A DNA stretch of 29,081 bases from Patescibacteria group bacterium (GCA_018053685.1 JAGPKW010000001.1:1-29081); one strand, 5' to 3'; counted from the stretch's first letter, positions 752 through 26,136 are shown. Made by a program: numbers and translations. Notes: a model not told the origin generated them from the sequence alone.

Positions 752-3700
752 ATGAATAGTTGCAGGTATTTTACAGAACAAGAAATAACAATAGCAATGC
801 AAGCATTAAATGTAACAAAAAATGTTGCTAAAGCTATTCTTACAAGTATGCATAATGAAATGAATGGAGAAGATTTCAATGTTACTAAAGATAATATAAA
901 AAACTATATTCAAGGAAAAAAAATTTCTGAAAAAGATGAAGTATTTTTGAATAATAAAAAAGAAGCAAAAATAGCATCTCTAAAAAATGAACAGAAAAGA
1001 ATAATAGATATAAAAAATAATAAAAACAATAATAATAATTTAACAAATTCTCAAGTTAATGTATTATCAAAAATAATAGATATACAAGAAAAATTATTAG
1101 AACATTTTGAAGAAGGTACATATGCTATTTCTGTAAGTAACTTAAAAGGAGTATCTAAATTCAGACCGTCAGGAGAAGAAGTTGATATATATGCTGATTT
1201 TAAAAATTTTGGGACATTTATGCATTATATAATGGAACAATTAATATTGTTTCAAATAGATAATTCTCTTGCACAACAAATGGGTATAACAAAACCTATA
1301 GAAGGCAATATTGATGTTAGGTGGTTAGACCAAGAAATATTTAACATATTGTATGATAAATTTCAGGAAGATGAAACTAGAGCTTTTGAAATAGAAAATT
1401 TTACTAAAGAAACTATGTTTAAAGCAGTAAGTGATATGCTTTATACAGTAAGTGATTTAATTAATAAAGGTTATGTTTTATTACCAGAAGTAACATTAGG
1501 AGCTAAAGCATTTAGAGATGGAGATAATATAGTTGTTGGTAGAGTAGATATGTTAGCTATTGCTCCTAATGGCAGAATATCTATTATTGATTTTAAAACT
1601 AAGAAAGTTCAGCATATGTTGGCTGCTAATTCTAATGATCCAAATCATGTGGACGTTAGGGTTGAATTGGGATTAAATAATTATGAAATAGATTCTACAG
1701 GAGATACTTATAGTGGGTTTGTTGGTAAAAAAAGAACTACTTATGACGAATGGTTTGTACAATTAGAAATGTATTCTAATATGTTAAGACAAGCAGGTCT
1801 TGATGTTGATATTACTAATAATAAGATTATTGCATTAGCATATCAAACTACTGATGATATGTCATTTAGAGGTCAGGTTGTATTGTCATTTAGTGGATAT
1901 GATTATTACATATCTACACAAGATTACATTAAAGGAGCAAGAAAATTTTCTCATGCAACTTCTAAGTGGTTAGGTAGTAAAGAAGATGCTAAAATCCGTC
2001 AAAGCAATAAATTAGATCCATTGATGAAAATGATAGATGAAGCTATACCATATAAAGATGTTGTTCAAGAAGAAAGAATGAGTAAGGAAGAATTATATAA
2101 TATTTCTCCTACAGAAGATAAAATGCAAAAATTCTTAACAGTAGTATATGAAAATTCAAAAAAGAATTTAGAGGTATTAGAAGCTCAATTAAATGAACAT
2201 GGCATTTCTGATGAGGTTAAAAATTTAAGAAAAACACAAATAAGTTATTTAAGATCTATTATTAATGTTGTTGAAAATGGAAGTAGAGATGAACAATTAC
2301 CATTTTATAGAGGATTATTATATGCACAAACATTAGAACAAGTTGAGGAACAAATATATAGTTTAACAAAGAAATTTAATGAAATAAATAAAATATATAA
2401 TGAGGCTATTCAAAATTATATGAATAATCCTACTAAAGAAAATAAACAAAAATATCTTGATCAATATAAGATTATGATGGAAATTCATGAAGAAAATAAT
2501 GCTGTCAGTGAGATATTAAATATGTTATATGAAATAGGTGTTGAAGCTAAAAATAATCCTGCAAATAATATTACAGAAGATAGTGTTATGTATAAGAAGT
2601 TATTAGGTGCTTATGCACAACACAATTCATTACAAAACAAGTGGCAAGATGCTACAATAACAATGTTAACAGAAGTATTAAGAACAATAAGTGAGGCTGA
2701 TTTTGTCAATATTACTAAGGGGATAAGAGATGTATTTACTGTAGAAAAAAGCAAAATATTAAAAAAGATTGATAAGTTAGAAAATAATCGAAAAAGTATA
2801 TTTAACAAAATACAATCTGGATTTTTTAAAACATTAAAAAGATTTATAAATCAAGAAAAGGATATTTATGAGGATGCAAACTTAACAGAGATAGAAAAGG
2901 AAATTACAGGATTAAGAAAAAGATTACATGAGATAGATGCAATTCTTAATGGTCTTAATTATGATAGAGAAAGTTTACAAAAGATTATTGATAATATGAA
3001 AGATCCAAATTCTATATTATATTTAGGAGCAAGGACATTATACAATAAGAATTGGACAATGAGTAATGGGGCATTCGCAAGATTTCAAGCTACTGTTACA
3101 GATCAAGATTTAGGAATAGCATCTGTAGTTATTATGCTTAAAAATGCAGAAGGAATGATGAATCATAATATTACTAATGATAAAGCATTGCATGATTTGG
3201 CAAAAAATACAGATAGTATTAAAAATAAAAAAAATATAGGAGAGAAGGAATTAAATGAGAAAATAGCAGAATGGACTACTATTAAAAGATATAATAAAGA
3301 AACTAAGCAAATAGAAGATAGGAGGGTGTTTGTTTTAGTAAAACCTACATCTAATGAATTTGAAACAACATATCAAACTTATAATTATAAGTTTAGAATA
3401 TTAAAAGAAAAAGAAAAAGAACTAAGGTATGAATATAATAAAATAATAAAAGAACAACCTAAAAACCATGATGCAATAAAAGAAGCTGAAAATGCTTATT
3501 TTGAGGCTAAAAAAGAAACATATAGACATAATGCTGAATATATAGATTGGCTTGTTAAATATGCAAATTTACCATATATAGATGCTTATTATCAATTACA
3601 AAAAGGATTACCTTTAGAATATCAAGAGCAATTAGATGATATATATTTAACAATAAGTACTATAATGTCAAGAGATATTGCAGAACAAGATGATGATGAT

Positions 3701-6700
3701 TATGATACTTTATTTATGTTAAGGGCACAAATTAAAGAGATAAAACAAAAAGCTCAAAAAGAAAATCCTGAATATGCTAAAATTATAGAACAGATGGAAG
3801 GTATGTATGATGCTGATTATAATGAAGAAGCATATGAAAGAGCATTAAGAAATGCAGAGATAAAATTTAAAAATCATCCAGATTTATTGGCTAAATGGAA
3901 AAAGACATATCAAATAGAAAAATATTCTCAAGAGTGGTATGATAGAAGGAATGCAATATATGATAGATTAGGAGAAATATTTGGTAAAGATGATGTTTTA
4001 GATGCTTTATATGCAAGGAGAAATGAAATTAAAGCAAGATATAAACAAAATTATGTTTATAATCCTATATTTTACACTACAGATGAAATTAATGAATTAG
4101 ATGAAATTGATAAAGAGATAGCTGATTATATAGAGAACAAGCCAAAATATTCATTCTCTATAGAAGAAAGACAAGAAATTAAAGATTTAAAGAATGAATT
4201 AGCATCTATTCAAGAAAGCATATTATCTCCATTTTATGTTGAAAGATTTAATGAAAGAACAGACATTATGATAGCAAGAAGAAATGCTATGAATGCAGCT
4301 GCAAGTATATTAGAAAATAAACAAAAAAGATTTAAAGATAAAAATAGCACTATCACAGAAGAAGAATTGATGATGGCAGAAATGAAATATATACAAGCAG
4401 AAAATGATTTTGCAAATGTATGGAGTGAATATAGAGATTATTATAACAAATATCATGAAGATAAGTTAGGAGAATTTGATTATTTAAGATTTAATAGAGA
4501 TAGAGCAATTCCAAAATCATTTAATTATATATATAGACCTATATCTCAAAAATATATTCAAATAGTTGGTAATCCTAATTATTTTACAAAATACAATATA
4601 AAAGATGAAGCAAGAAATCCTAATTATGTTGAAGGAGTAGAAAATATGCCTTTACCTAAAGGAGTAATAAGTATAGGAGATGGTGTATATGATTTAACTC
4701 CAGAAGGAATGATGAATCCATATGTTAATCAAAAATTTAAAGATATAGTTGCTGATAAAGATTACAAAGATTATTATGATAAACTTACTACTTATTATTT
4801 TGGCTTACAGAAAAAGATGATAGGTAAAAAGATGGGATATGAAGTTCCTGGATATGCAGAAGATAAAATGGAAAATTTTAGTAGGTATGGATTTTTTAAA
4901 GGTTTATCTAGAGAAATAGCTAAGAAAATTGATAAACACATGAAGTTTGAAGGTTCACAACAAGATTATGTAGAGAATGTGTTTGGAGATTTGGGAGTTA
5001 TTAGAAGCAGATTTACAAGGCAATTAACAGAGGATATTCAAACCACAGATGCTATCAATGCTATTTATAAATTTGCTGTGGAAGCTCATTATAATAGTTC
5101 TATGCAAGAAGTACAACCACAAACAGAAGGAGCTATAGAATATTTTAAACAAATGATAAGGGATTTGGAGACTACTCAATCAGCAAATCCTGCAATGCAG
5201 AAAGAAATTGAAAAAAGAATTAAAGAATGGAGATATGCTGTAGAAGTATTAGAGTTTGAAAAAAGAAAATATATACAAGGACAAATTGATGACAGTCAAC
5301 AAAGAAAATTAAAAAAAGTAGTTAACTTATTATTTCAACACGTAAGTTTGATGAGGCTTGGTTTTGATGTTACCAATCAGTTAAAGAATTTTACAGCAGC
5401 ATCAGTACAAATGTGGTTACAAGCAGGTGGTGGTAGTAATCATTATTCTCAAAAAAATATGATGACAGCCTATAGAAAGGTTTTTGGAATAAATGGTGTT
5501 ATATCTAATTATTTAAAAGATTGGGGTAAAATCCATGATTTACATGAATCTACAATGTTATATAGAATGATGAATCCTTTGCAAAAAGATATGATAAAAT
5601 ACTACAAACAAATAACAGGTGGTAGATTAAGAAGGATGGGAGATAGATTAACTGATTTTATGGAATTAGGATATATGGTCCAAGATAAGGGAGACACAAT
5701 GATAGGTATGTTGGTTATGCATGCTGTTATGGATTCATACAAATATAAAAAGATAGATCCAATAACAAAACAACCTGTATTGGAAGATGGTAAACCTGTA
5801 TTAATTCCAGCTTCTGAATGTTATATTCAAAAACCTGATGGTACTTTAGAGATAAGAAATGATGTTGAATATACTATAGAAGATCAGTTAAAATTAAGAA
5901 GAATTATTGTAGCAGAATTAAGGAGAGCACAAGGTAACTATGCAACATCAGATATGACTAGAATGGAAGCTAATACTATTGGTAAATTAATGTTTTTCTA
6001 TAGAAAATATTTAGTACCATTGATGTTAAATAGATTTGGCATATTAAGACCATCTTGGGAAACAGGAGAAGCTACATTAGGATATTGGAGAGCATTAGCT
6101 CAAGCATATGGGGCTTTTGGTGCTAAAGCTACATTAAAACAATTCTTATTAGGTAATTTTACTAATAAGTTTGAAGATGGTGTAAGCAAATTAACATATA
6201 TTGATAATGCTAAAAATGGTAAACAAGAAATATATGAACTAGGAGATATATATGCAAGGAAAATCAATCATGCTTCAAGAGATGCTTTAGCAATGATAAT
6301 ACTTCTATCATTATCTATGATGGCATTGGGGGCTTTAAGAAGAAGGGATGATGATGATGAACCTGTAGATATTGTTACAGGGAATCTAATAAGAATATTA
6401 TGGGGTACAACAGGAGAAGCTACTAGTGTCTTTCCTTTTGGGGCAGGTACAGATGAGTATATTAGAAACTTTAGTACAGCATTACCTATGGCAAGAGAAT
6501 TATCAAAAGCATATCAAACAGTAGATAGATTGTTTAAAACAGCATTTGTGATGATAGCAGGTCAAGGAGAAGAACCAGATCCAGATATTGATGCTAATTG
6601 GTATGTAGAGTGGTATAAAGATGTGTTTTATACATCTTCATCATCAGGTTATCCAGAAGGTACAATGAAACTGAAAAAAGATTTACATGATTTAACAGGA

Positions 6701-6766
6701 TATTCTAATATTAGAGGTTTATTGCAGCCAGAAGTAAGGTTAAAAAGTATGGCATCAAGATTTTAA
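752..6766 (+). CDS. Giant (2004 aa) putative virion cargo/ejection protein with N-terminal PD-(D/E)XK (RecB/Cas4-like) nuclease domain
   Basis: Uninterrupted 6-kb ORF. Nuclease motifs HYIMEQ...LLPEVTLG...VGRVDMLAIAPNGRISIIDFKTKK...QLEMYSNML lie at about nt 1200-1800. The middle is a long helical/coiled-coil region. The C-terminal QGNYATSD...IGKLMFFYRKYLVPLMLNRF segment resembles large phage internal virion proteins. It sits just before the lysis genes. Confidence 0.75.
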   Translation: MNSCRYFTEQEITIAMQALNVTKNVAKAILTSMHNEMNGEDFNVTKDNIKNYIQGKKISEKDEVFLNNKKEAKIASLKNEQKRIIDIKNNKNNNNNLTNSQVNVLSKIIDIQEKLLEHFEEGTYAISVSNLKGVSKFRPSGEEVDIYADFKNFGTFMHYIMEQLILFQIDNSLAQQMGITKPIEGNIDVRWLDQEIFNILYDKFQEDETRAFEIENFTKETMFKAVSDMLYTVSDLINKGYVLLPEVTLGAKAFRDGDNIVVGRVDMLAIAPNGRISIIDFKTKKVQHMLAANSNDPNHVDVRVELGLNNYEIDSTGDTYSGFVGKKRTTYDEWFVQLEMYSNMLRQAGLDVDITNNKIIALAYQTTDDMSFRGQVVLSFSGYDYYISTQDYIKGARKFSHATSKWLGSKEDAKIRQSNKLDPLMKMIDEAIPYKDVVQEERMSKEELYNISPTEDKMQKFLTVVYENSKKNLEVLEAQLNEHGISDEVKNLRKTQISYLRSIINVVENGSRDEQLPFYRGLLYAQTLEQVEEQIYSLTKKFNEINKIYNEAIQNYMNNPTKENKQKYLDQYKIMMEIHEENNAVSEILNMLYEIGVEAKNNPANNITEDSVMYKKLLGAYAQHNSLQNKWQDATITMLTEVLRTISEADFVNITKGIRDVFTVEKSKILKKIDKLENNRKSIFNKIQSGFFKTLKRFINQEKDIYEDANLTEIEKEITGLRKRLHEIDAILNGLNYDRESLQKIIDNMKDPNSILYLGARTLYNKNWTMSNGAFARFQATVTDQDLGIASVVIMLKNAEGMMNHNITNDKALHDLAKNTDSIKNKKNIGEKELNEKIAEWTTIKRYNKETKQIEDRRVFVLVKPTSNEFETTYQTYNYKFRILKEKEKELRYEYNKIIKEQPKNHDAIKEAENAYFEAKKETYRHNAEYIDWLVKYANLPYIDAYYQLQKGLPLEYQEQLDDIYLTISTIMSRDIAEQDDDDYDTLFMLRAQIKEIKQKAQKENPEYAKIIEQMEGMYDADYNEEAYERALRNAEIKFKNHPDLLAKWKKTYQIEKYSQEWYDRRNAIYDRLGEIFGKDDVLDALYARRNEIKARYKQNYVYNPIFYTTDEINELDEIDKEIADYIENKPKYSFSIEERQEIKDLKNELASIQESILSPFYVERFNERTDIMIARRNAMNAAASILENKQKRFKDKNSTITEEELMMAEMKYIQAENDFANVWSEYRDYYNKYHEDKLGEFDYLRFNRDRAIPKSFNYIYRPISQKYIQIVGNPNYFTKYNIKDEARNPNYVEGVENMPLPKGVISIGDGVYDLTPEGMMNPYVNQKFKDIVADKDYKDYYDKLTTYYFGLQKKMIGKKMGYEVPGYAEDKMENFSRYGFFKGLSREIAKKIDKHMKFEGSQQDYVENVFGDLGVIRSRFTRQLTEDIQTTDAINAIYKFAVEAHYNSSMQEVQPQTEGAIEYFKQMIRDLETTQSANPAMQKEIEKRIKEWRYAVEVLEFEKRKYIQGQIDDSQQRKLKKVVNLLFQHVSLMRLGFDVTNQLKNFTAASVQMWLQAGGGSNHYSQKNMMTAYRKVFGINGVISNYLKDWGKIHDLHESTMLYRMMNPLQKDMIKYYKQITGGRLRRMGDRLTDFMELGYMVQDKGDTMIGMLVMHAVMDSYKYKKIDPITKQPVLEDGKPVLIPASECYIQKPDGTLEIRNDVEYTIEDQLKLRRIIVAELRRAQGNYATSDMTRMEANTIGKLMFFYRKYLVPLMLNRFGILRPSWETGEATLGYWRALAQAYGAFGAKATLKQFLLGNFTNKFEDGVSKLTYIDNAKNGKQEIYELGDIYARKINHASRDALAMIILLSLSMMALGALRRRDDDDEPVDIVTGNLIRILWGTTGEATSVFPFGAGTDEYIRNFSTALPMARELSKAYQTVDRLFKTAFVMIAGQGEEPDPDIDANWYVEWYKDVFYTSSSSGYPEGTMKLKKDLHDLTGYSNIRGLLQPEVRLKSMASRF

Positions 6767-12680: not shown

Positions 12681-13652
12681 TTATTTAACTTCAGTTTCAA
12701 AAACAGTTTCCCCCGTTTCATTACAAATTATTGAAACAGTTCCGCCCTTATAATCTTTAAAATAAGAATGATTTGTTCCGTTGTATTCTTCAATATAACT
12801 TAAACAGTCATCGTAACTATCTATGAAACCTTTATAATTACTATCTTGTTCATTGTTAAAATGAACATCATAAGTTAAGTCGTACATCATTGCGTAATGA
12901 TATTTATCGTTTTCAAATTCATTTCTTATAGGTTTTTCTAAATACTCTTTCCCATTAAGTAACTTCCCATTTTTGTATTTACTTCTTTTAACACCATCTT
13001 CTCCATATACTCCCCATTGCTTAAAGAAAAATGGCACATGATATAATTCACATTGTTCTTTAATGTTTAACACCCATTCTTTATTCATTTTTCTAGCATT
13101 ATGACCACTTTCGCCACCAACTATTACCCAATCAATAAGATTTAGGTCTAATTTACCCAAATCCTCTAACAATGGCTCACATGAGATGAATTTAACAATA
13201 GCATTTAATTGTTTTAAATATTGTATTCTATCTCTTGCTTTTTTATTTTCAACAGTAACTCCTAACCATACATTTTTAGGGATAGTTCTACCATGTAAAT
13301 ATTTATACATATTAATAGCTCTTTTGGTTAAAATTTGATATGTGTGTTGTGGGGTTTGTCTTATGACATCAAATACTCTATCTATAAATGAATAAGGAAC
13401 TTCTTCATGGAAAAGATCACTCATGCTACAAACAAATATCATAGTGGGATTTGTTAATTTTAATGGTTCATTTAAATAATCTTCATGTAAAGTTATTTTA
13501 TCAAAACCATTTTTATATTTATCTAGGTCCATTGCTTGTAATCTTTTTGTCATTCTTTCAGCATAACAATTCTTACATCCATCAGATATTTTTGTACATC
13601 CTGTAATGGGATTCCATGTTGTTTCAGTCCATTCTATTTTTGATTTCTTCAT
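12681..13652 (-). CDS. DUF5131 (phage Gp37/Gp68, radical-SAM-like) protein with an 82-aa C-terminal extension
   Basis: IEWTETTWNPITGCTKISDGCKNCYA, IFVCSMSDLFH, QILTKR, WLGVTVEN, FISCEPLL, WVIVGGESG, FFFKQWG. Confidence 0.9.
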   Translation of the reverse strand: MKKSKIEWTETTWNPITGCTKISDGCKNCYAERMTKRLQAMDLDKYKNGFDKITLHEDYLNEPLKLTNPTMIFVCSMSDLFHEEVPYSFIDRVFDVIRQTPQHTYQILTKRAINMYKYLHGRTIPKNVWLGVTVENKKARDRIQYLKQLNAIVKFISCEPLLEDLGKLDLNLIDWVIVGGESGHNARKMNKEWVLNIKEQCELYHVPFFFKQWGVYGEDGVKRSKYKNGKLLNGKEYLEKPIRNEFENDKYHYAMMYDLTYDVHFNNEQDSNYKGFIDSYDDCLSYIEEYNGTNHSYFKDYKGGTVSIICNETGETVFETEVK

Positions 13653-14962: not shown

Positions 14963-16690
14963 TTAAAATAATGATAACTGATCTGTTTTGTCAGCTATCT
15001 CTTTTTTTGTTTCTATTTCTGCTATTTCTCTTTGTATTATGTCTATATAATATTTGTGATTTACATCATATGTCTTTTTAGATTCAAACTCATTGAATAT
15101 TGTAGCATTTTTAGCTACTATAATTTTATCTTTACCATTACTTTTATAAATTGTTGTTCCTTTATTAGAGATATAATATCTTATTGTTTGACCATAATCA
15201 TTATTTTTATCGTCATAAAATCTCCAATTACCTTTAATTTTCAGCCCTGTACAAAAATCATATATATTATCATTTTTAAAAATATAACTTTCTACATTTA
15301 TCCCATTAAGAAAATAATTATATATAGTTAATGGTATTATTAAATTAGATCTATCTTTTTCAACACATAGATCTTTATGTCTAAATCTACCTCTGCATTT
15401 AACATTTCCTTTTTTTACAAGAATATAATTATTAATATCCCATAGATATAATTTTTCACAATCATTTAATGATAAATTTAGATTGAACATTTGTTTCCAT
15501 TCTTCAACAATCTCATTGTATATGTATTCATGCTCTTTAGGGATTAAATATTCACACCCATCTGTATTAACCATAATAAGCTCTGATAAAGGAATTTTAT
15601 TAGATACCATATCTATAAATTTAGATAGTATTAATTGACCTGTTTTATACATTTTAAAAGCTAATTCTCGGTCATATAAAGAAGATTTTTTAACACTAAA
15701 TAATCCACATGTAATAACTAATATTTCTTTCAAAAGGTTACTTAAATGTTTATTAGTGTAATGTTTTAATCTTAATTGATAGAAATAATTAAGTATCTTT
15801 AAAAAACCATTATTGTTAAAGTTTTTAGGAGACCATTTATTATTTAGAATAATAGTGGCATAATAAGATTTAATATCCAATGACTTAATAATCTTATTAT
15901 GTACACTTTTATAGATAGATGCAGTATCCCTTCTGCTATGCATACCACCAAAAGAATAATTAATATCCACATCATCAATTTGGATTGTGATTTTTCTAGT
16001 GTTTTCATATAATCTATTAAATTTTATATTGTCAAATTTAATCTTTGGTAAATTTAAACTTAAAGGTTCATTATCTTTTACACAATATCTATTAAATACA
16101 TATTCAACAAAGGTAGAATTATTGATATTAAAATCTTTTAAATCAAGATGATTAAATAACTTTGATCTTATTTTAATATCTTGATAATAATATTGATATA
16201 AATATTTAATAATGCTTGTATTGTGTTCAATTAAAAAAGAATAATATTCACTATATCCTTTAAGACTAATTATTTTTTTAGCACTTGCAGAATTGATATT
16301 GTCAATATTTTCATTAAGAGAATATTTTATCCAATCTAATGTTATATTTTTATACTTCCAATTATTTATTATTGAAATATCAATATAATGTAATTCAAAT
16401 ATATCATTAAACTCACTATTCAATATTTCTTTAATATCTTTTGAAGAATAAAATATATTATCATTAGTTAATATATATTCTAAAAAATAAACTTTATTAT
16501 GGCAATCAAACCCTAAGAACCAACATTGAATATTTGATACAATAAATTCTTTAAGATTCTTTAGGTTTATATCTTCATATATATTATTACAAAAATATTC
16601 AGCTTTATCAGAATGTAAATCTTTGAAAACAATAGTTAAAGCATTATTTTCAAATATCATATCAAATATCCAATGTGTTGTGTTTTTCAT
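14963..16690 (-). CDS. polB: Family B DNA polymerase with degenerate 3'-5' exonuclease and altered motif B
   Basis: Motif A SLDIKSYY, motif C MVNTDG, and the WDINNYI and KCRGRF segments are present. Motif B reads KEILVITCG instead of KxxxNSxYG. The Exo I/II/III carboxylates are largely missing. Confidence 0.8.
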   Translation of the reverse strand: MKNTTHWIFDMIFENNALTIVFKDLHSDKAEYFCNNIYEDINLKNLKEFIVSNIQCWFLGFDCHNKVYFLEYILTNDNIFYSSKDIKEILNSEFNDIFELHYIDISIINNWKYKNITLDWIKYSLNENIDNINSASAKKIISLKGYSEYYSFLIEHNTSIIKYLYQYYYQDIKIRSKLFNHLDLKDFNINNSTFVEYVFNRYCVKDNEPLSLNLPKIKFDNIKFNRLYENTRKITIQIDDVDINYSFGGMHSRRDTASIYKSVHNKIIKSLDIKSYYATIILNNKWSPKNFNNNGFLKILNYFYQLRLKHYTNKHLSNLLKEILVITCGLFSVKKSSLYDRELAFKMYKTGQLILSKFIDMVSNKIPLSELIMVNTDGCEYLIPKEHEYIYNEIVEEWKQMFNLNLSLNDCEKLYLWDINNYILVKKGNVKCRGRFRHKDLCVEKDRSNLIIPLTIYNYFLNGINVESYIFKNDNIYDFCTGLKIKGNWRFYDDKNNDYGQTIRYYISNKGTTIYKSNGKDKIIVAKNATIFNEFESKKTYDVNHKYYIDIIQREIAEIETKKEIADKTDQLSLF

Positions 16691-16971
16691 AAGATTTTTT
16701 TTAATATATCATGATCTTTATTGATACATATATTGTTTATGAATGAAATTATATCTTCTTTTTCCTCAATGTAATATTCATAAAAAATCTCATCATTTTC
16801 ATTCTTCTTTTTTATTGAAGGGATTGTTGTTTTTGTCTTAGATAATATTACCAAGACTTCTTCTTCTGGATTATATATTGCTTCTAAAAAGTTAGAATCA
16901 TTATTTAGTGGTATCATCCTAAATGATTCTTTATCTCCCCATTTTGAAGAATGTATCATCATTTTATTCAT
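16687..16971 (-). CDS. Hypothetical protein (94 aa)
   Basis: ATGA overlap with polB. Confidence 0.7.
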   Translation of the reverse strand: MNKMMIHSSKWGDKESFRMIPLNNDSNFLEAIYNPEEEVLVILSKTKTTIPSIKKKNENDEIFYEYYIEEKEDIISFINNICINKDHDILKKIL

Positions 16972-17428
16972 ATATTTTCTTTACTTTTTTCCTTGATAAA
17001 TTAAACATCATAAACTCAATATCCATTTCAGAAACTTTATACATTTCATCTTCAATAGATGGTTTTTTACTACATTCTCCTGATAAATATAAACTTACTT
17101 CATCAAAAACATTTATATTACCTATATAATGTTTTAAAATAGTGTTTTTATTTTTAGCAGTTATTTTATTTAAATCCCCATTTTTAACATGATTAAAATC
17201 TTTCTCATATAATTTCATGTCAAATAATAATAACACTTTATCATTATCAACATCCATTCTTCCTTTTAAGTGTGTATTATTTATTCTTTTTACATCTTCT
17301 TTATTGAATAGACACAATAAATAAGGAAAATAATCAGCTTCATTGTACATATATGTATTTATAGGCTCTATTTTCCATAGCCTTAATAAAGGATATAAAA
17401 AATAATAAGACATATTTTTCTTTATCAT
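16964..17428 (-). CDS. Hypothetical protein (154 aa)
   Basis: Overlaps both neighbours; part of the replication operon. Confidence 0.7.
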   Translation of the reverse strand: MIKKNMSYYFLYPLLRLWKIEPINTYMYNEADYFPYLLCLFNKEDVKRINNTHLKGRMDVDNDKVLLLFDMKLYEKDFNHVKNGDLNKITAKNKNTILKHYIGNINVFDEVSLYLSGECSKKPSIEDEMYKVSEMDIEFMMFNLSRKKVKKIYE

Positions 17429-18438
17429 ATAATTAGTTCTCCTTTGTTGATTAAAAATTTATAAGGTAATGAAAAATCTTGTGTTTTAAAGTGATATTCT
17501 GCAATATCAAATATTTCATTACTTCTTTTTATCCATTCTTCTAAAGTGTCTTTACTCACTAAAAATGTTGCTACTTGACCATAATTATCACTTACAAGAA
17601 ATCTGATTTCAATATCATAATCATCTTTGTAATATTTAGAATTTATTACTAATAAATAATAAATAACAACTTGTAGCCAGTAGTTGTAGTATTCTATTGT
17701 TTCAAGAAAATCATTAATACTTTTATTGGAGGTTTTAAAGTCATTGATTTTGATAATTTTGTTTTTATGATCTATAGTTAAATTATCTAATATTCCTTTT
17801 AGACCAAACATTTCTAATTCAGGAATATCAGCTTCTAAATATAGTTCATTAAATGTTTCAGTTAAACTATCAAAATTCAATATATTGCTACCAATATGTT
17901 TAGTTATAGTATCATTTTTAATAATATTGTCAACTATTTCTAAAGCATAGTTATATAGTTGTTGAGTGATAATTTCTTTTCCTGTACTTCTTTTCAAAAA
18001 ATTAAAATAATCAATATTTTCTTGAGGTTCTATGATTTTTGCCAATCTTGATTCATCTGTTTTTAAAGATTGATGCAAATTCATTTCTATCAATTTATTT
18101 AATATGTTATCTTTAAAATCTTCCATTGTTTTATTATCATCATTCTCTATAAGATAACATTGATATATATAGTCTATTACTGTTTTAGAATTTGTAGAAG
18201 GTAATTTATCAAATGCAATCTCATACATTTTATTAAAATTCTCTGGTTGCAATAACAAACAATGAATAAGTCTTCCTTCTTTCATTGATTGTGTTTCAAT
18301 ATCTTCTTTCTCTTCTAAAACATAATGTTTATAATATAATGTTGGACTAAACATTAATTTTGTCAAAGCATTATAAGACAAATATTTTTTTTCTGAAAAG
18401 AATTTTTCTTCCTTGTTTTCTATTTTAAATAATTCCAT
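17425..18438 (-). CDS. PD-(D/E)XK exonuclease (RecE/PDDEXK_1-like)
   Basis: YLSYNAL, GRLIHCLLL, KGILDNL...INDFKTS, YWLQVVIY. Confidence 0.8.
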   Translation of the reverse strand: MELFKIENKEEKFFSEKKYLSYNALTKLMFSPTLYYKHYVLEEKEDIETQSMKEGRLIHCLLLQPENFNKMYEIAFDKLPSTNSKTVIDYIYQCYLIENDDNKTMEDFKDNILNKLIEMNLHQSLKTDESRLAKIIEPQENIDYFNFLKRSTGKEIITQQLYNYALEIVDNIIKNDTITKHIGSNILNFDSLTETFNELYLEADIPELEMFGLKGILDNLTIDHKNKIIKINDFKTSNKSINDFLETIEYYNYWLQVVIYYLLVINSKYYKDDYDIEIRFLVSDNYGQVATFLVSKDTLEEWIKRSNEIFDIAEYHFKTQDFSLPYKFLINKGELII

Positions 18439-18868
18439 CTTCTATATCCTTTCTGTAAAATTTCCCTAAAATATTATTATTATAAGAATTGTTTTCTAGA
18501 ACATTATATATAATTTGATACTTTAACTCTAGATATGTCATTCCTTTTTTTGTTTTACAAAATTGCAATATCTCTCTTTCAAAAAAAGATTTATTAGATT
18601 TATTTATATCATCTTTTAACTCTTGACAACTGCCATAATATGTCTTCCAATCATTTTCTCTAGAAACATATTTAAATCTTTTCGTTGTTCCTATTTTTTT
18701 CTTTTCTCTGTTAGATATTTTTATTTTTTTGGTAACAAAAAACATTTTTTTGCCAATATAAAATTTACCATTTTGAGTATTTGTAATTTTGTAAACAAAT
18801 CCAATAACATCTTGTGGAATATCTTCTAAAGATGTAAAATCTTTACCTAAGTATTTCCAATGATTCAT
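18425..18868 (-). CDS. GIY-YIG endonuclease (Seg-like)
   Basis: GFVYKITNTQNGKFYIGKK...WKTYYGS...LELKYQ; overlaps both neighbours. Confidence 0.75.
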   Translation of the reverse strand: MNHWKYLGKDFTSLEDIPQDVIGFVYKITNTQNGKFYIGKKMFFVTKKIKISNREKKKIGTTKRFKYVSRENDWKTYYGSCQELKDDINKSNKSFFEREILQFCKTKKGMTYLELKYQIIYNVLENNSYNNNILGKFYRKDIEDGII

Positions 18869-19847
18869 TTAGTTTTTTATTTATATATGGCACAATTCTT
18901 CTTCTTGCTTCATCAATCCCATTATTTTTAAGAATTAATGCTGGATCTTTTTCATATGGGATATAACAATATTTTAATCCATACATTTCATTATATTTCT
19001 TCATAGCTTCTATACCCGGTTTGTCATTATCAAATATTACAAGAATATTATCTTTCCCATAATTATTAATGAATTTACTTATCATATAATTTGACAACAT
19101 TGTATTTTCACTATCAGGAGCATACATGTCTGCTTTTATTCCTATAGTTTTTAAAGCCATAATATCCTTTAATGATGATATGATAAAACAATATTGATTA
19201 TTATCATTCTGTTCAGAACCTTGTATGTAATTGTTTACTTTAATAAACTTCTTTGTTGAATTTAATGGTTGATATATCTTTGCTAGATTATTGATAGAAT
19301 TACCATATAAATAACCATATATGCATTTGTTTTTAACTTCAAACTCTTCAATAATTTCATCTTCTATTTGAAAAGCCATGATATATGATTTTATAGGGAC
19401 AACATTGTGTTCTTTAAGTATATCTATAGATATATAATAATCTTTCCAATATTCATAATTATATTTATTCCATTCTACAGGAACATATGATTTGACTATC
19501 CATCCTTGATACTTAATATTTTCCTTATCAATATCAGATATATAATTGTCATTATTGATATAATCATTTTTTATTCTATTAAAAGCATTATTAAATGAGC
19601 AATTCCATATCAACATCATTAAATGTATTCCTCTACCAGAATGTCCTGATGAAAAATCCTTAAATTTATATCTTTCTATTTTTCTATCATAGTATATTAC
19701 AAGAGAGGGAACAGTATCCCTCTCATTAAATATACTTTTTATCTTTATACTCTGTCCTGTCAATTTTGGTAATCCCAAATAATGACTGAATATCCAATCA
19801 TCAGGAATGTCATTTATTGACATAATATGTTTTAGAGCATAAAACAT
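18843..19847 (-). CDS. dnaG: DnaG-type primase (TOPRIM), crAss-like
   Basis: IKSIFNERDTVPS...YKFKDFSSG N-domain, IISSLKDIMAL (TOPRIM motif with S in place of E), VIFDNDKPG, EKDPA. Confidence 0.8.
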   Translation of the reverse strand: MFYALKHIMSINDIPDDWIFSHYLGLPKLTGQSIKIKSIFNERDTVPSLVIYYDRKIERYKFKDFSSGHSGRGIHLMMLIWNCSFNNAFNRIKNDYINNDNYISDIDKENIKYQGWIVKSYVPVEWNKYNYEYWKDYYISIDILKEHNVVPIKSYIMAFQIEDEIIEEFEVKNKCIYGYLYGNSINNLAKIYQPLNSTKKFIKVNNYIQGSEQNDNNQYCFIISSLKDIMALKTIGIKADMYAPDSENTMLSNYMISKFINNYGKDNILVIFDNDKPGIEAMKKYNEMYGLKYCYIPYEKDPALILKNNGIDEARRRIVPYINKKLNESLEILR

Positions 19848-19859
19848 GATTATTATTAT

Positions 19860-20630
19860 TTAAAATTGTGATGAATAATCATCATCATCAATTACAAATG
19901 GATCATTCTTCATGTTAGAAACATCTATTTGTTCAAAATTTGGCATATCTGCCATAGATGTATCTTCAAAAGTAGGAATATCTGTAGTTGTATTGTTATT
20001 TACAGAAACTCCCTTATCTCTTTTTATGATGTGAACATCCTCATCAAAAGGTACTACACCATCTTTTTTCAAAGATACATAGTTTTTCCTATTTTGATAT
20101 TTTACAAAATGCAAATAATAATTAGGATAATCATAGCCATCTTGCCATTTCTCAACACCACCAATAGTGTAGTATGCCCATAAATTTGGGTTGCAAATAT
20201 GTTTTTTTGCAACTTCTGCTAATTCAGCAGCTGTTACTCCATTTCTTAGCTTTGGCTCAACTTTTACTGTATCCCATACTCCTAAAGATACACATAATCT
20301 TGCAATAAAATCACAGGCTTCATTGTTTGCATATCTTTTTTCTCCAGATGGAGTTATCCAATCTCCAAAAGCATATTGACTATTTTTTACATATCCAATT
20401 TGTCCTTGATATGAACCTTTTTTTGGATCATTTTTGTCAATTAAAACTCCTTCAAAATCTCCGCCTATAGGTTCTGTTTCCATGAGGAAATTTATTTGTA
20501 GTTTATTTTGATCATAGGCAGGAGCAGCAACTTCTACATCTATAATTCTACATAAATGAGTTCCTGGTTGAATAATCTTTGAAACAAATTTTCCACCATT
20601 TTCTTTAAAATCATCAATTTTCCAAGTCAT
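19860..20630 (-). CDS. Probable single-stranded DNA-binding protein
   Basis: QPGTHLCRIIDV beta-rich core, acidic aromatic tail (DDDDYSSQF), and position between the ATPase and primase. Confidence 0.6.
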   Translation of the reverse strand: MTWKIDDFKENGGKFVSKIIQPGTHLCRIIDVEVAAPAYDQNKLQINFLMETEPIGGDFEGVLIDKNDPKKGSYQGQIGYVKNSQYAFGDWITPSGEKRYANNEACDFIARLCVSLGVWDTVKVEPKLRNGVTAAELAEVAKKHICNPNLWAYYTIGGVEKWQDGYDYPNYYLHFVKYQNRKNYVSLKKDGVVPFDEDVHIIKRDKGVSVNNNTTTDIPTFEDTSMADMPNFEQIDVSNMKNDPFVIDDDDYSSQF

Positions 20631-20670
20631 AATTTTAATTTTTTATTTGTTAATAAATTTATTTAATATT

Positions 20671-21348
20671 TTAATTATAATATTCATTAATAGCTTTTAG
20701 AACAATGCTTAAATCATTAGGAATAAACAATTCTTCAAACATTCCTTCTGGAGATTTTGCAGGAATTTCTATTCCTTCAACTATTGTTCTATTGGTTATA
20801 AATCTATAATTTATATTTTCTTTGGTAACTTCTGGTTTACACCATAAAGCAATAGTCATAGTTTCTAATGGAGAATATTCTTTTTCTATAAGTTGTCCTG
20901 GTAATTTAACTTTTTTTGTAACAATAAATTTGTCATTATACACATCTTCATCATGTAGCATACCAAAAACTACAAGATCATCTCTCATTACTTGTATCCA
21001 ATCTAATACAGATTGAAAGTTTTTTGCAATTTGAGTAAATTTTGTATAGCCTGTTTCTAATGCTCTATTAAAAAATTCTGTTGTCATAAAATATCTCATA
21101 TCATCAATAATTATTGTTTTAATATGAGGTGCTTTTTTGTCAATATTATTAAGTAATACTTTTAAAGAAGAATAATCATTTAAATATACATAATTGTTAT
21201 TTTCTCTGTTATAAATCTTGTTTGCACTTTTAAATGGTAAAGGTTTGTTCAATACACTTATTACTATTGTGCTTTTAGGATCTAAATTCAAAATAGATCT
21301 ACTCTTACCTGAACCTGTATCTCCAATTATTCCTACAAATTTTGCCAT
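20671..21348 (-). CDS. AAA-family P-loop ATPase (AAA_24/Sak4-like)
   Basis: Walker A GDTGSGKS, Walker B IIIDD, AKSPEGMF. Confidence 0.8.
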   Translation of the reverse strand: MAKFVGIIGDTGSGKSRSILNLDPKSTIVISVLNKPLPFKSANKIYNRENNNYVYLNDYSSLKVLLNNIDKKAPHIKTIIIDDMRYFMTTEFFNRALETGYTKFTQIAKNFQSVLDWIQVMRDDLVVFGMLHDEDVYNDKFIVTKKVKLPGQLIEKEYSPLETMTIALWCKPEVTKENINYRFITNRTIVEGIEIPAKSPEGMFEELFIPNDLSIVLKAINEYYN

Positions 21349-21356
21349 AATATAAT

Positions 21357-21893
21357 TTATTTTTTACTTTTTATTAATTCATTTAACCATTTAGTTTTAG
21401 ATGCTGGAACATTATGCAAAATACAATATAAATCTCTTACAGTCATCTGATTTAAAGATTTATCTTCTAAATTGATAATATCCAACTCTGTTAATTCTTC
21501 AATGTTGTCATCAACATTATTATTAGAGCATGAACATATATTTAATTCCCTAAAAGGAATAAAATATACATTAAATTCTTCTCCACTTTTACTTGTTCTT
21601 TTGATTGTTTTATATTCTTCTAACTTTTTACCTTTAATACAATAAAGAACTCTTTTTTGTTCTTTTAAGTATGGAAATACATTGTCCCCATGCTTATTAA
21701 CCAATTCAAAATATAATATATTCCCTATTTCTGGTAATTCATTTTTGAAGAATGTTACTCCTAATTCTTTAGGTTCTAATTCTTTAGGAGAAAACAACAA
21801 TCTTACTGTAAAGTTATTTGTATCAATGTTTTTGTTTTGGAAATAATCATTCCAAAAATCAATAAATTCATTTTTTAAGTCAGCTATATTCAT
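21357..21893 (-). CDS. Conserved phage hypothetical protein (178 aa)
   Basis: Lies within the replication operon; C-terminal MTVRDL...KWLNELI motif. Confidence 0.7.
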   Translation of the reverse strand: MNIADLKNEFIDFWNDYFQNKNIDTNNFTVRLLFSPKELEPKELGVTFFKNELPEIGNILYFELVNKHGDNVFPYLKEQKRVLYCIKGKKLEEYKTIKRTSKSGEEFNVYFIPFRELNICSCSNNNVDDNIEELTELDIINLEDKSLNQMTVRDLYCILHNVPASKTKWLNELIKSKK

Positions 21894-21896
21894 ACT

Positions 21897-22868
21897 TTAT
21901 AATTCACTTCTTTTTTTAGGAGCTTCTGTTTCTATTACAGACATTTTATCATATAATGCTCTGTACCAATGTATTCCATCATTTCCAAATCTGTTTTTTA
22001 AAATATGGCAAGCCAATAAATTTTTGTCATCTAACGACAAAACATAAGATGTAGGTCCATAGAATTTTAGATTATACTTTGCTGGTCTATTATAAGCTAA
22101 TACAACATCACATCCTTGCATTAAGGCATCAGACATGTAAATATCATCTGATGTTGGAAAATTAGTTAATCTACCAGGATTTTGTCTTTCTGCACTCTCT
22201 AAAGTTCTATTTAGCTGTGAACCTACAATCCATATCATTGGTAGTTCTTTTTTAGATTCTATTGCCATATTGGAAAAATTCTCAATGGTAGTTTGTTTTT
22301 TAGGTTCTCCTGCTGTTTTCTTAATTAACATTGTATGATCCAATGTCGCAATAAAAGGTTTTTTAAACTTTTTATAAAATTCATAAACATAATATTTTAT
22401 TTCATCAACAGACATTTGTTTATCAATGACATATTCATTTCTATTATAATATTGAGAATTTACATATGTCTTTAATTGTTTTAAGTGTTCTTGAGATAAC
22501 TTATCAACATCTTGTTCTTTAGATGATAATAAGTATCTTAATCTTAATCCTGTTGCAGATGATAATTCTCTTGCAGCAAGATTCTTCTTGTCCATCTCAA
22601 ATTGAAAGTGCAATATGTATGGATCTTCATCTTTATTTAATTTCTGAATATTTCTCGTCAGTTGATTTATTATTAAAGTTTTACCTACACCAGGTCTTGA
22701 TGCAATAAGATAAAAACTACCCCATTCTAATCCACCATATCCTATATTGTCAAATTGCTTCCAGCCTGTTTTTAAAGATTTTACCTTTCCAGATGCTCTG
22801 TCTTCAATATATTTAACAGATTCTACTAATGAATCTCCATATTTGGTCCATACCTCATTCATTACCAC
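21897..22868 (-). CDS. dnaB: DnaB-like replicative helicase
   Basis: LKTGWKQFD, Walker A ASRPGVGKT, FQFEM, LDHTML, SQLNR, MQGCDVV, ILKNRFG. Confidence 0.9.
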   Translation of the reverse strand: MVMNEVWTKYGDSLVESVKYIEDRASGKVKSLKTGWKQFDNIGYGGLEWGSFYLIASRPGVGKTLIINQLTRNIQKLNKDEDPYILHFQFEMDKKNLAARELSSATGLRLRYLLSSKEQDVDKLSQEHLKQLKTYVNSQYYNRNEYVIDKQMSVDEIKYYVYEFYKKFKKPFIATLDHTMLIKKTAGEPKKQTTIENFSNMAIESKKELPMIWIVGSQLNRTLESAERQNPGRLTNFPTSDDIYMSDALMQGCDVVLAYNRPAKYNLKFYGPTSYVLSLDDKNLLACHILKNRFGNDGIHWYRALYDKMSVIETEAPKKRSEL

Positions 22869-23581
22869 ACAATCTCCTTTTTACCTTTAGCTATTAAAGC
22901 ATCATTTATTTTTGGAAATATATTGTTATGATTCCATACTATATCATTACTAAATAGTTCTGGAATATTATCACAACATATTTTAATGCACTTATCACTT
23001 ATTGTATTGTAATAATATTCTTTAGGTCTATCTCCAATAATACCATATATAATATCATATTTAGATAATTGTGATAACACAAAACTTATAAAAGGATTCC
23101 ATATCTCATAATGCTTTAAACTGTTTTTTCTTAATACATCTATACTTGTATCTGTTGTAAATGTAGAATGTATTGATAGTATCCTCTTAGGATCTCCTAA
23201 TTGAAAACGGCCAGCATAGAAAGATTTATTTAAAACAGAACTTACATGATGCAATTCTGGTGTTGAATATGAATACTTTTTTTTCAAATCATAAAAAGGT
23301 ATTAAAGGAATACCTTTAGCTAAACCTATTGCAGAATATGGCTTATCAAACATTAATAATACATCAATATCTTCTGGATCTAGTTTTTGGAATGGTATAA
23401 ATACATATTTTAATTCAGGAGTGAATCTTCTACCTTCTTTATAAAATTCATATAATTGATAAAAAATATCTTTAAAATCTTGAGATAGTAAAAACATTCT
23501 TAATAAAGAATACCACTTTTCATGTTTTTTAAATTTTTCTATCTCATTATTTATAATATTTTCTACAATATCAATTTTCAT
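22862..23581 (-). CDS. Uracil-DNA glycosylase family 1 homologue, apparently inactive
   Basis: FTPELKYVFIPFQKLDPEDIDVLLMFDKPY aligns with YPP..IF.AF...P...VKVVILGQDPY. GQD is replaced by FDK and the HPSP motif is absent. Confidence 0.6.
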   Translation of the reverse strand: MKIDIVENIINNEIEKFKKHEKWYSLLRMFLLSQDFKDIFYQLYEFYKEGRRFTPELKYVFIPFQKLDPEDIDVLLMFDKPYSAIGLAKGIPLIPFYDLKKKYSYSTPELHHVSSVLNKSFYAGRFQLGDPKRILSIHSTFTTDTSIDVLRKNSLKHYEIWNPFISFVLSQLSKYDIIYGIIGDRPKEYYYNTISDKCIKICCDNIPELFSNDIVWNHNNIFPKINDALIAKGKKEIVW

Positions 23582-23960
23582 TATATATAATGTTTTGTAT
23601 TTCTATGAGTTTGTTAATTACCATATCCAATTCTTGAATAGAACAATCTCCAAAAGATTTTAACTTCTTTTTATAAGGTTTAGAAGATACAATATTAAAT
23701 ATGCCACATACTTCTTTAATATGATCTTTAGTTTCATTAAATCCTTGTTTTGTAAATTCAGCTATTTCTCTTATCATAGCATGTATTTTTGCTAATTGAG
23801 GCAATGTTCCTATTTCTTCATCATAACATGTTATATAAACATCTACAATTTTATTATTAGAGATTTTATCAATAAATTCTTTATAAGTTCTTTCATCTTC
23901 CTTAGAACAAGGATATAGTTTGCAATCATTTTTTTGAAACTTAACAAAACATTCTTTCAT
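23571..23960 (-). CDS. NinB-like protein
   Basis: TLPQLAKIHAMIREIA...KSFGDCSIQELDMVI resembles the NinB/YbcN pattern. Confidence 0.5.
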   Translation of the reverse strand: MKECFVKFQKNDCKLYPCSKEDERTYKEFIDKISNNKIVDVYITCYDEEIGTLPQLAKIHAMIREIAEFTKQGFNETKDHIKEVCGIFNIVSSKPYKKKLKSFGDCSIQELDMVINKLIEIQNIIYNEN

Positions 23961-23963
23961 TTG

Positions 23964-24251
23964 TTATATATCTCCTTCTTTTAGTTCTATTGTAAGATTT
24001 TGTTTTTCAGCCTCATCTTCTATTGTGTATATGAGTGCTACCAATGTCTCAATACATTTTTCTTTTTCATTTAGTGGTTTTTTGTTTTTAACTTTATCAA
24101 TAACTTCTTCATAATCTTTAGGTAGCATATCTTTTGTAATAAATGTTAAAACATCTATTACTCTGCTATGAAAACCACCTGATACAGGAATTTTGAAGAT
24201 AGTGTCAGATTTCAGTCCCTTCAATTTGGGAGTTTTGTTTTCTTTATTCAT
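23964..24251 (-). CDS. Hypothetical protein (95 aa)
   Basis: AAAATTATG start immediately downstream of a promoter. Confidence 0.7.
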   Translation of the reverse strand: MNKENKTPKLKGLKSDTIFKIPVSGGFHSRVIDVLTFITKDMLPKDYEEVIDKVKNKKPLNEKEKCIETLVALIYTIEDEAEKQNLTIELKEGDI

Positions 24252-24275
24252 AATTTTAATTTTAGTTTTAGTTTA

Positions 24276-24307
24276 CAAATATATAAAACATTAATTTAAA
24301 TCACAAA
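24276..24307 (-). promoter_or_regulatory. Bacteroidota housekeeping-sigma promoter
   Basis: TTTG (24307-24304), N20, TATATTTG (24283-24276): full -33/-7 consensus with correct spacing. Confidence 0.7.
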
Positions 24308-25398
24308 TCTAACCATGTAATTTTATTTTTATCATATCCTGATAATGCTTTTTTAACCCACTTTTCATCTATAGTACCTATATAATATAATATATGTATA
24401 ATTGCTGTTTCATTAACAGGCAATCTTAAACATCTACCTATTCTTTGAGATGTTACATATTCTGATGCATATGAATGAATAATTATGCTTGCTTTTAAAT
24501 TAGGAATATTTATCCCTTCTTTTAATTGATCTACAGAAGCTAATACTTGTATATCTCCATTTTTAAATAACTCTAAATTTTCTTGATTATTATTATTTTT
24601 TGAATGATATACATGTTTTGATAGTCTATTAGCTTGTGCTGTATCATTAGCAAATATAAGTGTTTTATCTTTTATTAAATTAAGTAATTGTTTTACTTTT
24701 ACTTCTTTAGATTTAAATTTAAGAAGTTGTGCAGACATTAGTAATCTTAATTTAAAATTTTCAGGATATTTGTTGATTAAATTATTATAATAATTATACT
24801 GTTTCAATTCAGAGGTATAAAAATATCCACCATTTTTTTTAGTCATCATAATATCATTTTCTCTAGATAACAATACAGGATGACAATATATTCTATAATC
24901 ATTTAATATTTTATCATCTATAGCTTCATCTGTAATATACTTAAAAACTATAGGAGCATATGAACTTATCATATTATCTTTTTCTGATTTTTTTCTTTTT
25001 GGTGGAGAACCTGTTAGCCCTAATATTCTGCCTCTATACTTGTCAAGAAATATTTTATGAGAATATTTAATGTTATGAATCTCATCAAAATATATTGACA
25101 AAAATTCATTAGCAATATCAGAATATTTATTTAAACTTCTATATGTTACAAAAGTTAATTTGTCAATTAAATATTCTTTATTAAATTTTACACATTCTTT
25201 TTTCCAAGTGTCAATTACTGATAATTTAGGCACTATTATTAAGAATTTAGCATCTCTATTAACAGTAAGTCTTATGTCCATATCTTTTAATCCAAGAAGT
25301 GTTTTGCCAACACCTTGAGATATAGCCATAGTACATCTTTTATAATTTTGAGCTATAGATAATGCTTGAGACATTATCTCTTCTCTTTTGTTTTCCAT
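24301..25398 (-). CDS. SF2 (DEAD/DEAH-like) helicase
   Basis: SQGVGKT, FDEIH, LGLTGSP, LKEGINIP, QRIGRCLR. Confidence 0.85.
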   Translation of the reverse strand: MENKREEIMSQALSIAQNYKRCTMAISQGVGKTLLGLKDMDIRLTVNRDAKFLIIVPKLSVIDTWKKECVKFNKEYLIDKLTFVTYRSLNKYSDIANEFLSIYFDEIHNIKYSHKIFLDKYRGRILGLTGSPPKRKKSEKDNMISSYAPIVFKYITDEAIDDKILNDYRIYCHPVLLSRENDIMMTKKNGGYFYTSELKQYNYYNNLINKYPENFKLRLLMSAQLLKFKSKEVKVKQLLNLIKDKTLIFANDTAQANRLSKHVYHSKNNNNQENLELFKNGDIQVLASVDQLKEGINIPNLKASIIIHSYASEYVTSQRIGRCLRLPVNETAIIHILYYIGTIDEKWVKKALSGYDKNKITWLDL

Positions 25399-25722: not shown

Positions 25723-26136
25723 TCAAAAATTATTTTTTGGCTTCAATGCATATATGTTGAAATCTAATTTTTTAAACATCTTATAGTTGTTTATTAGATT
25801 AAACATATTCTTTCTTCCACGTTCATTATCTGTATCAATTATGATATTGTGAAGTTTTAAATTATGTTTATCTACATAATCTATTAACCATGATATGCAA
25901 TCATATCCTGTTTTTTCTTCAAACTCATCATAATTGACACAATAGTTATTTTTGTTAATTATATTTTCAATGATATGTTCATTATCTAAGTCGTGATCTA
26001 AGGATATATATGCAGGTATTCCATTTTCTACTATATATTTAGCAAAATCAACACCATTAGTTACTATGTCCCATTCTATATTATCATTATTTGGTGGTTT
26101 CTTATTTTTACTTAAATATAATCCTTTGCTTTTCAT
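25723..26136 (-). CDS. Cyclic-phosphate-processing receiver (cREC)-like domain protein, degenerate
   Basis: W.IV...F..YI...G.P..ISLDHDL...KTGYDC..WL pattern. The usual LDD reads LSK and HSxN reads DTDN. Confidence 0.6.
   Translation of the reverse strand: MKSKGLYLSKNKKPPNNDNIEWDIVTNGVDFAKYIVENGIPAYISLDHDLDNEHIIENIINKNNYCVNYDEFEEKTGYDCISWLIDYVDKHNLKLHNIIIDTDNERGRKNMFNLINNYKMFKKLDFNIYALKPKNNF

Follow-up and report, generated by a model that had tools for sequence, protein, structure and literature searches.

Replicative polymerases of large double-stranded DNA viruses almost always proofread. The closest described relatives of the polymerase considered here form a subgroup of family-B DNA polymerases (PolBs) that was defined as 'PolIIphages', or the NTDG subgroup, by Kazlauskas & Venclovas in 2011 (PMC3201878) and renamed the crAss-like PolB group by Kazlauskas et al. 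in 2020 (PMC7544198). The crAssphage PolB (gp16, DAB41538.1), which was the best-covered annotated relative found by tblastn (E 6e-14), has intact DxE, NxxxYD and YxxxD exonuclease motifs. The DNA examined here, called the window, is a stretch of 29,081 nucleotides from a Patescibacteria group bacterium (GCA_018053685.1, JAGPKW010000001.1:1-29081); it is one entire contig (C41) of a 930-kb, 154-contig metagenome-assembled genome (MAG), 27.5% GC. On the minus strand at 14963-16690 it contains an open reading frame (ORF) for a protein of 575 amino acids (aa), hereafter the query, with zero internal stops on translation. The query and gp16 have the blocks GGxH, DxxSxYP, KxxxNxxxG, NTDG, NNY and K-x-K-G in common, but in place of the intact exonuclease motifs of gp16 the query has one of four catalytic carboxylates, together with the substitutions N325V and P278A. 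Judged on its sequence, the query is probably the active replicase of the phage, one that lacks proofreading of its own and whose nucleotide pocket is altered.

The ORF matched the PHROG family phrog_1252 ('DNA polymerase') over residues 3-565 (E 2.4e-54) and gave no match to Pfam. A profile of 27 family members matched archaeal family-B polymerases at E 1e-15 in an alignment that covers motifs A, B and C and the KxY region. The AlphaFold2 (AF2) model of the protein (predicted local distance difference test 83.9, predicted template modelling score 0.82) retrieved TgoT/KOD/9N in Foldseek at E 7e-14, and with VIA its residues 1-562 were placed on residues 132-747 of KOD (Z 16.6, root-mean-square deviation 7.1, 467 residues aligned) and on residues 105-890 of RB69. 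The exonuclease-palm-fingers-thumb fold of a family B DNA polymerase is therefore present. Since the KOD and RB69 alignments start at model residue 1, the protein begins at the exonuclease domain and has no classical PolB N-terminal domain. This is also the case for the crAss-like group, whose genes, like that of the query, lie among helicase, uracil-DNA glycosylase (UDG)-like and primase genes. Membership of the subgroup is indicated by the NTDG form of motif C, which is normal for the family and not peculiar to the query (PMC3201878), and by profile similarity to the crAss-like group. PF03175 (DNA_pol_B_2), the mark of protein-primed, phi29-like PolBs, matched neither the query nor anything else in the whole MAG, and a primase is encoded nearby; P0038, a distant member of the family, does have a precomputed PF03175 match.

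The query was aligned with 157 relatives collected in two large protein searches, in which the family reached 2628 hits, giving 158 full-length members. An initial annotation of the window had quoted DMI, DCHNKVY and HNTSI at the three exonuclease motifs, KEILVITCG at motif B and SLD and NTDG at motifs A and C, and all of these strings are present on translation. The same annotation described all proofreading motifs as erased. This is slightly overstated, as Asp10 of ExoI survives; of the remaining catalytic residues, E12 is replaced by Ile, D66 by Lys and D157 by Asn, and the ExoIII Tyr is Phe152. These positions are otherwise well kept in the family. ExoI has Asp in 142 and Glu in 145 of the 158 members, ExoII has Asp in 149, and ExoIII has Tyr in 151 and Asp in 148. 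At the ExoII position the query has no acidic residue in either alignment, reading K66 in the 27-sequence alignment and a gap in the 158-sequence one. The SLK motif for binding single-stranded DNA reads TLD, and among N-terminal-domain columns conserved in at least 80% of the family the query matches 6 of 18. A further apparent loss, D106S, was rejected as a two-residue misalignment, D104 being conserved.

A hidden Markov model (HMM) made from the exonuclease domains of 144 intact members scored 218 bits on the intact member P0004 and 189 bits on the intact member P0054; other degenerate members scored 82, 81 and 44 bits. At E<=1 it did not report the full-length ORF of the window, and among the copies of this gene only a partial one on locus L010 was reported (13.9 bits). 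The register of the DEDD fold is retained in the secondary structure of the AF2 model, with a strand at 6-14 carrying D10 and I12, a helix at 64-75 and a helix at 143-167. With three of the four metal-binding carboxylates and the ExoIII Tyr replaced, the exonuclease domain is predicted to survive only as a structural scaffold.

The polymerase site presents the opposite picture. The query has D272, Y277, K321, G329, N375-T-D-G378 and the K431/R433 motif, and its D377 aligns with the DTDG/DTDS of KOD and Sso PolB. As the initial annotation stated, the catalytic aspartates of motifs A and C remain. The motif A Asp, the motif B Lys and Gly and the motif C Asn and Asp are invariant in all 158 members, including the query and all ten exonuclease-degenerate proteins, and the steric-gate Tyr is found in 156, again including the query and 8 of the 10 degenerate members. 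Across polymerase-domain columns conserved in at least 80% of the family the query matches 44 of 57. Two substitutions fall in the nucleotide pocket. Motif A Pro, present in 149 of the 158 members, is Ala278, and motif B Asn, present in 150, is Val325, so that the complete KxxxNSxYG is not present and the description of motif B as rewritten was correct. The equivalent Asn of RB69 (N564) and of herpes simplex virus (HSV; N815) is in contact with the incoming deoxynucleoside triphosphate (dNTP), at its beta-phosphate and its 3'-OH (PMC5175367, PMC3564110), and HSV carrying UL30 N815L, N815V or N815T is viable (PMC5175367). Val is also found at this position in three exonuclease-intact relatives, P0081, P0181 and P0194. 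N325V is therefore compatible with activity; by analogy it should shift sugar or triphosphate recognition, in a direction that we infer. The proposal in the initial annotation of a proofreading-less polymerase with an altered pocket is supported, as the residues for catalysis of polymerisation are present, those of the exonuclease have been lost and dNTP-pocket positions in motifs A and B are substituted. The query is a polymerase of the crAss-like group that is very probably active and is placed as a replicase.

Four other, independent assemblies (L002, L003, L008 and L009; 96-98% identity) have identical motifs and intact frames, which excludes sequencing error. Among the four close variants the ratio of non-synonymous to synonymous polymorphism (pN/pS) is 1.0-1.4 over aa 1-230, from 4-11 non-synonymous and 0-2 synonymous differences, and 0.13-0.57 over aa 231-575, the polymerase domain. 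Pooled polymorphic codons give 12 non-synonymous to 2 synonymous in the N-terminal domain against 18 to 14 in the polymerase domain (Fisher p 0.09). Among close variants, then, purifying selection acts on the polymerase domain, and the exonuclease-like domain evolves almost neutrally. At deep divergence the ratio of N-terminal to polymerase-domain identity is 0.72, compared with 0.78 in intact pairs, and the N-terminal domain is still present, which fits a scaffold role. The synonymous component itself is uneven along the gene: in comparisons with L002, L008 and L009, pS is ~0.009 in codons 1-230 and ~0.036 in codons 231-575, a roughly fourfold difference from small counts. The difference could be due to chance or to a recent recombination boundary within the gene.

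These data bear on whether the query polymerises DNA at all. It might be a catalytically inert pseudo-polymerase, or the product of a decaying gene with a structural role, comparable to archaeal PolB2-type proteins, the C-terminal half of Pol epsilon or poxvirus F12. The near-neutral N-terminal domain would suit such a protein, as would the changes at family-conserved positions of the polymerase domain (P278A, N325V, Y411C, E407S and K312T). This explanation is nonetheless very improbable, given that D272, Y277, K321, D377 and K431/R433 are all kept, with neither catalytic Asp lost, that the polymerase domain is under purifying selection and that neither the five assemblies nor lineages of only 25-40% identity have a broken reading frame.

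Degenerate exonuclease motifs are found in 10 of the 158 members, leaving ~94% of those sampled intact. Besides the query these are P0052, P0055, P0072, P0088, P0155, P0115, P0138, P0147 and P0157. In a site-heterogeneous IQ-TREE of the polymerase domain the query and P0052 are sisters (ultrafast bootstrap 100, Shimodaira-Hasegawa-like approximate likelihood ratio test 98), and their next relative is the exonuclease-intact P0054 (97/92). As both sisters are exonuclease-dead, the loss predates their split, at which the polymerase domains are now 41% identical. P0115, P0138, P0147 and P0157 lie in a part of the tree distinct from that of the query, P0157 robustly with the intact P0108 and P0148; the other three group together in FastTree and in a quick IQ-TREE but are not one clade in the careful IQ-TREE. 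P0055, P0072, P0088 and P0155 are on long branches in unstable positions and are joined to the query by FastTree but not by IQ-TREE. A single clade of six exonuclease-dead proteins, given by FastTree (SH 0.74), was dropped as the site-heterogeneous model did not recover it, and an approximately unbiased test of a single clade of exonuclease-dead proteins (p 0.29) neither rejects nor shows a single origin. The nuclease encoded beside the polymerase is more informative for two of the unstable proteins: those next to P0072 and P0088 have identities of 0.46 and 0.38 to the nuclease next to P0004, against 0.35 and 0.33 to that of the query. Together with synteny this puts the P0072 and P0088 phages nearer the intact P0004, so that two losses are likely here. 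Besides the query and P0052, no fewer than two or three further lineages in the family have lost their exonuclease motifs.

Motif A Pro and motif B Asn are both changed in the query (to Ala and Val), P0055 (Ala, Thr), P0072 (Val, Leu), P0088 (Ala, Thr) and P0155 (Ala, Thr). Motif B Asn is kept in P0052, the P0115 group and P0157, and P0052 keeps the Pro too. Since P0052 is exonuclease-dead yet has both residues, the pocket changes of the query came after exonuclease loss. An association of exonuclease loss with motif A and B changes is suggestive, the three robustly independent contrasts giving no statistical power. A broader proposal would be that crAss-like PolB phages have repeatedly lost the exonuclease and each time then remodelled the pocket in the same way (Pro to Ala or Val, Asn to Val, Thr or Leu), converging on proofreading-free replication with a high mutation rate or an unusual nucleotide. 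We regard this as tentative and rather doubtful.

The position of the gene supports a replicative role. From ~8 to 29 kb the minus strand is a replication module with the polymerase at its end, in the order SF2 helicase, cREC-domain protein, UDG-like ORF, DnaB-like helicase, Sak4-like annealing protein, primase, GIY-YIG endonuclease, PD-(D/E)XK nuclease, two small ORFs and polymerase (Table 1). With its own primase and helicases this is an RNA-primed replication module of the kind found in the crAss-like subgroup. The order nuclease, ORF-a, ORF-b, PolB recurs at the exonuclease-dead P0052, P0055, P0072 and P0088 and at the exonuclease-intact P0004. The gene order shared with P0004 makes the query a positional orthologue of proofreading polymerases. 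As its second possibility the initial annotation had offered that the gene is a paralogue without a replicative role and that the true replicase is encoded elsewhere; this is disfavoured by the common syntenic slot and by the other polymerases of the MAG, with the reservation that the window is a genome fragment.

Those other polymerases are the Pol I (C48 and C10) and DnaE of the host, accompanied by a DnaQ-like exonuclease gene. The Pol I has 5'-3' and 3'-5' exonuclease domains and adjoins holA, and the DnaQ-like gene adjoins trmD and dnaX. PF00136, PF03175 and PF10108 gave no match in the MAG. Neither the MAG, nor the 29-kb contig, nor the regions flanking six related loci yielded a second phage DNA polymerase; the initial annotation had proposed a search of the rest of the genome for a second PolA or PolB. 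The two Pol I fragments overlap, that on C48 being without the first ~110 aa and that on C10 comprising the N-terminal 411 aa and ending within the 3'-5' exonuclease domain. Strain heterogeneity in the MAG, or slight contamination, is the suggested cause.

Proofreading could also be supplied to the replicase in trans, by the host epsilon subunit (DnaQ) or by an unrecognised phage nuclease, and fidelity would then be normal. In phiKZ-like phages the exonuclease and polymerase are separate polypeptides (PMC3201878), the host MAG has its DnaQ-like exonuclease, and several ORFs of the module are without an assignable family. However, no DEDD-type match (RNase_T, DNA_pol_A_exo1 or DNA_pol_B_exo2) was found on the phage contig, and when the window, the six related loci and the MAG were searched with the family exonuclease-domain HMM no separate ORF was reported. 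The two small conserved ORFs directly upstream of the polymerase were ruled out as a substitute, as they are homologous (E 2e-11 and 2e-5) to ORFs at locus L012 that adjoin the exonuclease-intact P0004. Proofreading in trans is accordingly improbable, and more so than the division of labour considered next.

Some observations weigh against the query being a replicase that works without proofreading. The window is a fragment of the phage genome, one relative being on a contig of 86 kb, and beyond it there could be a second polymerase or a stand-alone proofreading nuclease; a search of IMG/VR for longer relatives returned nothing but short near-identical contigs for the query, and no contig for P0088 or P0072. 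A fingers Lys that is 85% conserved in the family is Thr312 in the query. A non-homologous acidic residue might reach the old exonuclease site, D62 and E155 being nearby in sequence. Finally, identity in the polymerase domain is below that of the flanking nuclease in exonuclease-dead pairs (0.41 against 0.51 and 0.27 against 0.43), while an intact pair shows the opposite direction (0.43 against 0.32). The acceleration is thus specific to the polymerase and not genome-wide, and a simple mutator signature would look different. One possible cause is that constraint has relaxed because the polymerase has ceased to be the main replicase.

Such a polymerase would be active but specialised or auxiliary, acting for example in initiation, recombination-dependent synthesis or lesion bypass. 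It would work like the exonuclease-dead eukaryotic Pol alpha or Pol zeta, while host Pol III or a second phage polymerase outside the window carried out bulk replication. Besides the faster divergence and the incomplete phage genome, this would agree with the fact that Pol alpha and Pol zeta, the known exonuclease-dead PolBs, are not bulk replicases (PMC7544198), with the presence of Pol alpha among the best VIA matches to the query (Z 16.7), and with the second, exonuclease-dead polymerase that some large phages encode beside their main one (divPolA1 and divPolA2, PMC11348598). It is set against a query that occupies the position of exonuclease-intact polymerases, in a module with its own primase and helicases, and against the failure to find any other phage polymerase in the places searched, and it is unlikely.

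In Pol alpha and Pol zeta, as is predicted for the query, an inactivated exonuclease domain serves as a scaffold and the polymerase site is active (PMC7544198); they differ in their role and in having C-terminal Zn/Fe-S domains and partner subunits, and nothing indicates that the exonuclease losses go back to a common ancestor. The divPolA1 proteins of large aquatic phages (Yutin et al. 2024, PMC11348598) likewise combine an active palm with a 3'-5' exonuclease domain whose catalytic Asp residues are replaced, but they belong to family A, have a truncated thumb and usually lie beside a regular replicative polymerase, whereas for the query no second phage polymerase was found. At motif B the nearest parallel is given by drug-resistance variants of HSV UL30 N815 and varicella-zoster virus N779 (equivalent to RB69 N564), in which the same position is changed to Leu, Val or Thr and the enzymes are functional with changed nucleotide-analogue selectivity (PMC5175367, PMC3564110). 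Those are selected mutants of proofreading-proficient enzymes, while the change in the query is natural and followed exonuclease loss. The literature searched (one library) contained no account of crAss-like PolBs with a degenerate exonuclease.

If the query is indeed a proofreading-free replicase, the gene would encode the phage's own RNA-primed replicative family-B DNA polymerase, with palm, fingers and thumb intact. The enzyme would polymerise DNA but be unable to excise its own errors, and fidelity would rest on base selection at insertion. The changes of the motif B Asn and of the motif A Pro, which adjoins the steric-gate Tyr, are expected to affect how the sugar or triphosphate is recognised. 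Their effect may be a tighter selection that offsets the lost proofreading, or the positions may have become free to drift. The case for a mutator or for a non-canonical base as the consequence is weakened by the occurrence of Val in three exonuclease-intact relatives and by the viable HSV N815 variants (PMC5175367). These large DNA viruses might then replicate without built-in proofreading, several related uncultured phages sharing the loss, and a phage whose only polymerase is exonuclease-dead would provide a natural system for fidelity by base selection alone. It would allow tests of whether the motif A and B substitutions are compensating 'antimutator' changes and of whether such phages evolve faster. 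Being compact (575 aa), naturally exonuclease-free by sequence and altered in its sugar/triphosphate pocket, the query is also a candidate scaffold for modified-nucleotide incorporation.

Table 1. Coordinates of the polymerase, its motifs and the adjoining replication genes in the window.
Feature	Position	Strand	Comment
Family-B DNA polymerase, 575 aa, crAss-like / NTDG subgroup, degenerate exonuclease domain	14963..16690	-	phrog_1252 match, fold
N-terminal exonuclease-like domain (aa 1-230), catalytically degenerate	16001..16690	-	E12I, D66K, Y152F, D157N, K119D; only D10 kept
ExoI region IFDMIFE (aa 8-14), DxE reads DMI	16649..16669	-	translation, alignment
ExoII region GFDCHNKVYFL (aa 60-70), NxxxFD lost	16481..16513	-	translation, alignment
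ExoIII region YSFLIEHNTSI (aa 150-160), Y152F and D157N	16211..16243	-	translation, alignment
Motif A SLDIKSYYATI (aa 270-280)	15851..15883	-	D272, S275 and steric-gate Y277 kept; P278A
Motif B LLKEILVITCGLF (aa 319-331), core KEILVITCG	15698..15736	-	K321 and G329 kept; N325V
Motif C MVNTDGCE (aa 373-380), catalytic D377	15551..15574	-	NTDG, family-typical form
Two small ORFs (94 and 154 aa), directly upstream of the polymerase	16687..17428	-	no family match
PD-(D/E)XK recombination exonuclease, syntenic anchor	17425..18438	-	phrog_412; 38% identical to L012 orthologue
Rest of replication module: primase, Sak4-like annealing protein, DnaB-like helicase, UDG-like ORF, SF2 helicase	18843..25398	-

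Other genes of the window were also noted. The UDG-like ORF (239 aa, 22862-23581, minus strand) overlaps and lies just upstream of the DnaB-like helicase gene; it matched phrog_12143 and gave no Pfam match. Its counterpart at P0055 has a weak UDG match, and in crAssphage the UDG is directly upstream of the PolB. A role for the 239-aa protein as a processivity factor, like poxvirus D4, is worth testing. The GIY-YIG gene at 18425-18868 (minus strand), between the primase and the PD-(D/E)XK nuclease, encodes a SegE-like homing endonuclease, and one is found at the equivalent place in L004 (P0052) and L011 (P0054); further GIY-YIG and LAGLIDADG genes lie within the module in L013 and on the other contig of P0072. 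On the plus strand, a gene at 752-6766 that is convergent on the replication module encodes a 2004-aa protein with an N-terminal PD-(D/E)XK match (aa 151-287). Proteins of 2019-2026 aa are encoded at the same position in L005 and L013, adjoining a still larger gene (4181 aa). The gene at 12681-13652 (minus strand) encodes a member of DUF5131 (Gp37/Gp68; E 1e-104) that continues for ~80 aa past the domain at its C terminus; a literature search on DUF5131 found nothing. The protein with a cREC_REC (cyclic-phosphate processing receiver) domain, of 137 aa, is encoded at 25723-26136 (minus strand), adjoins the SF2 helicase and is conserved in L002.

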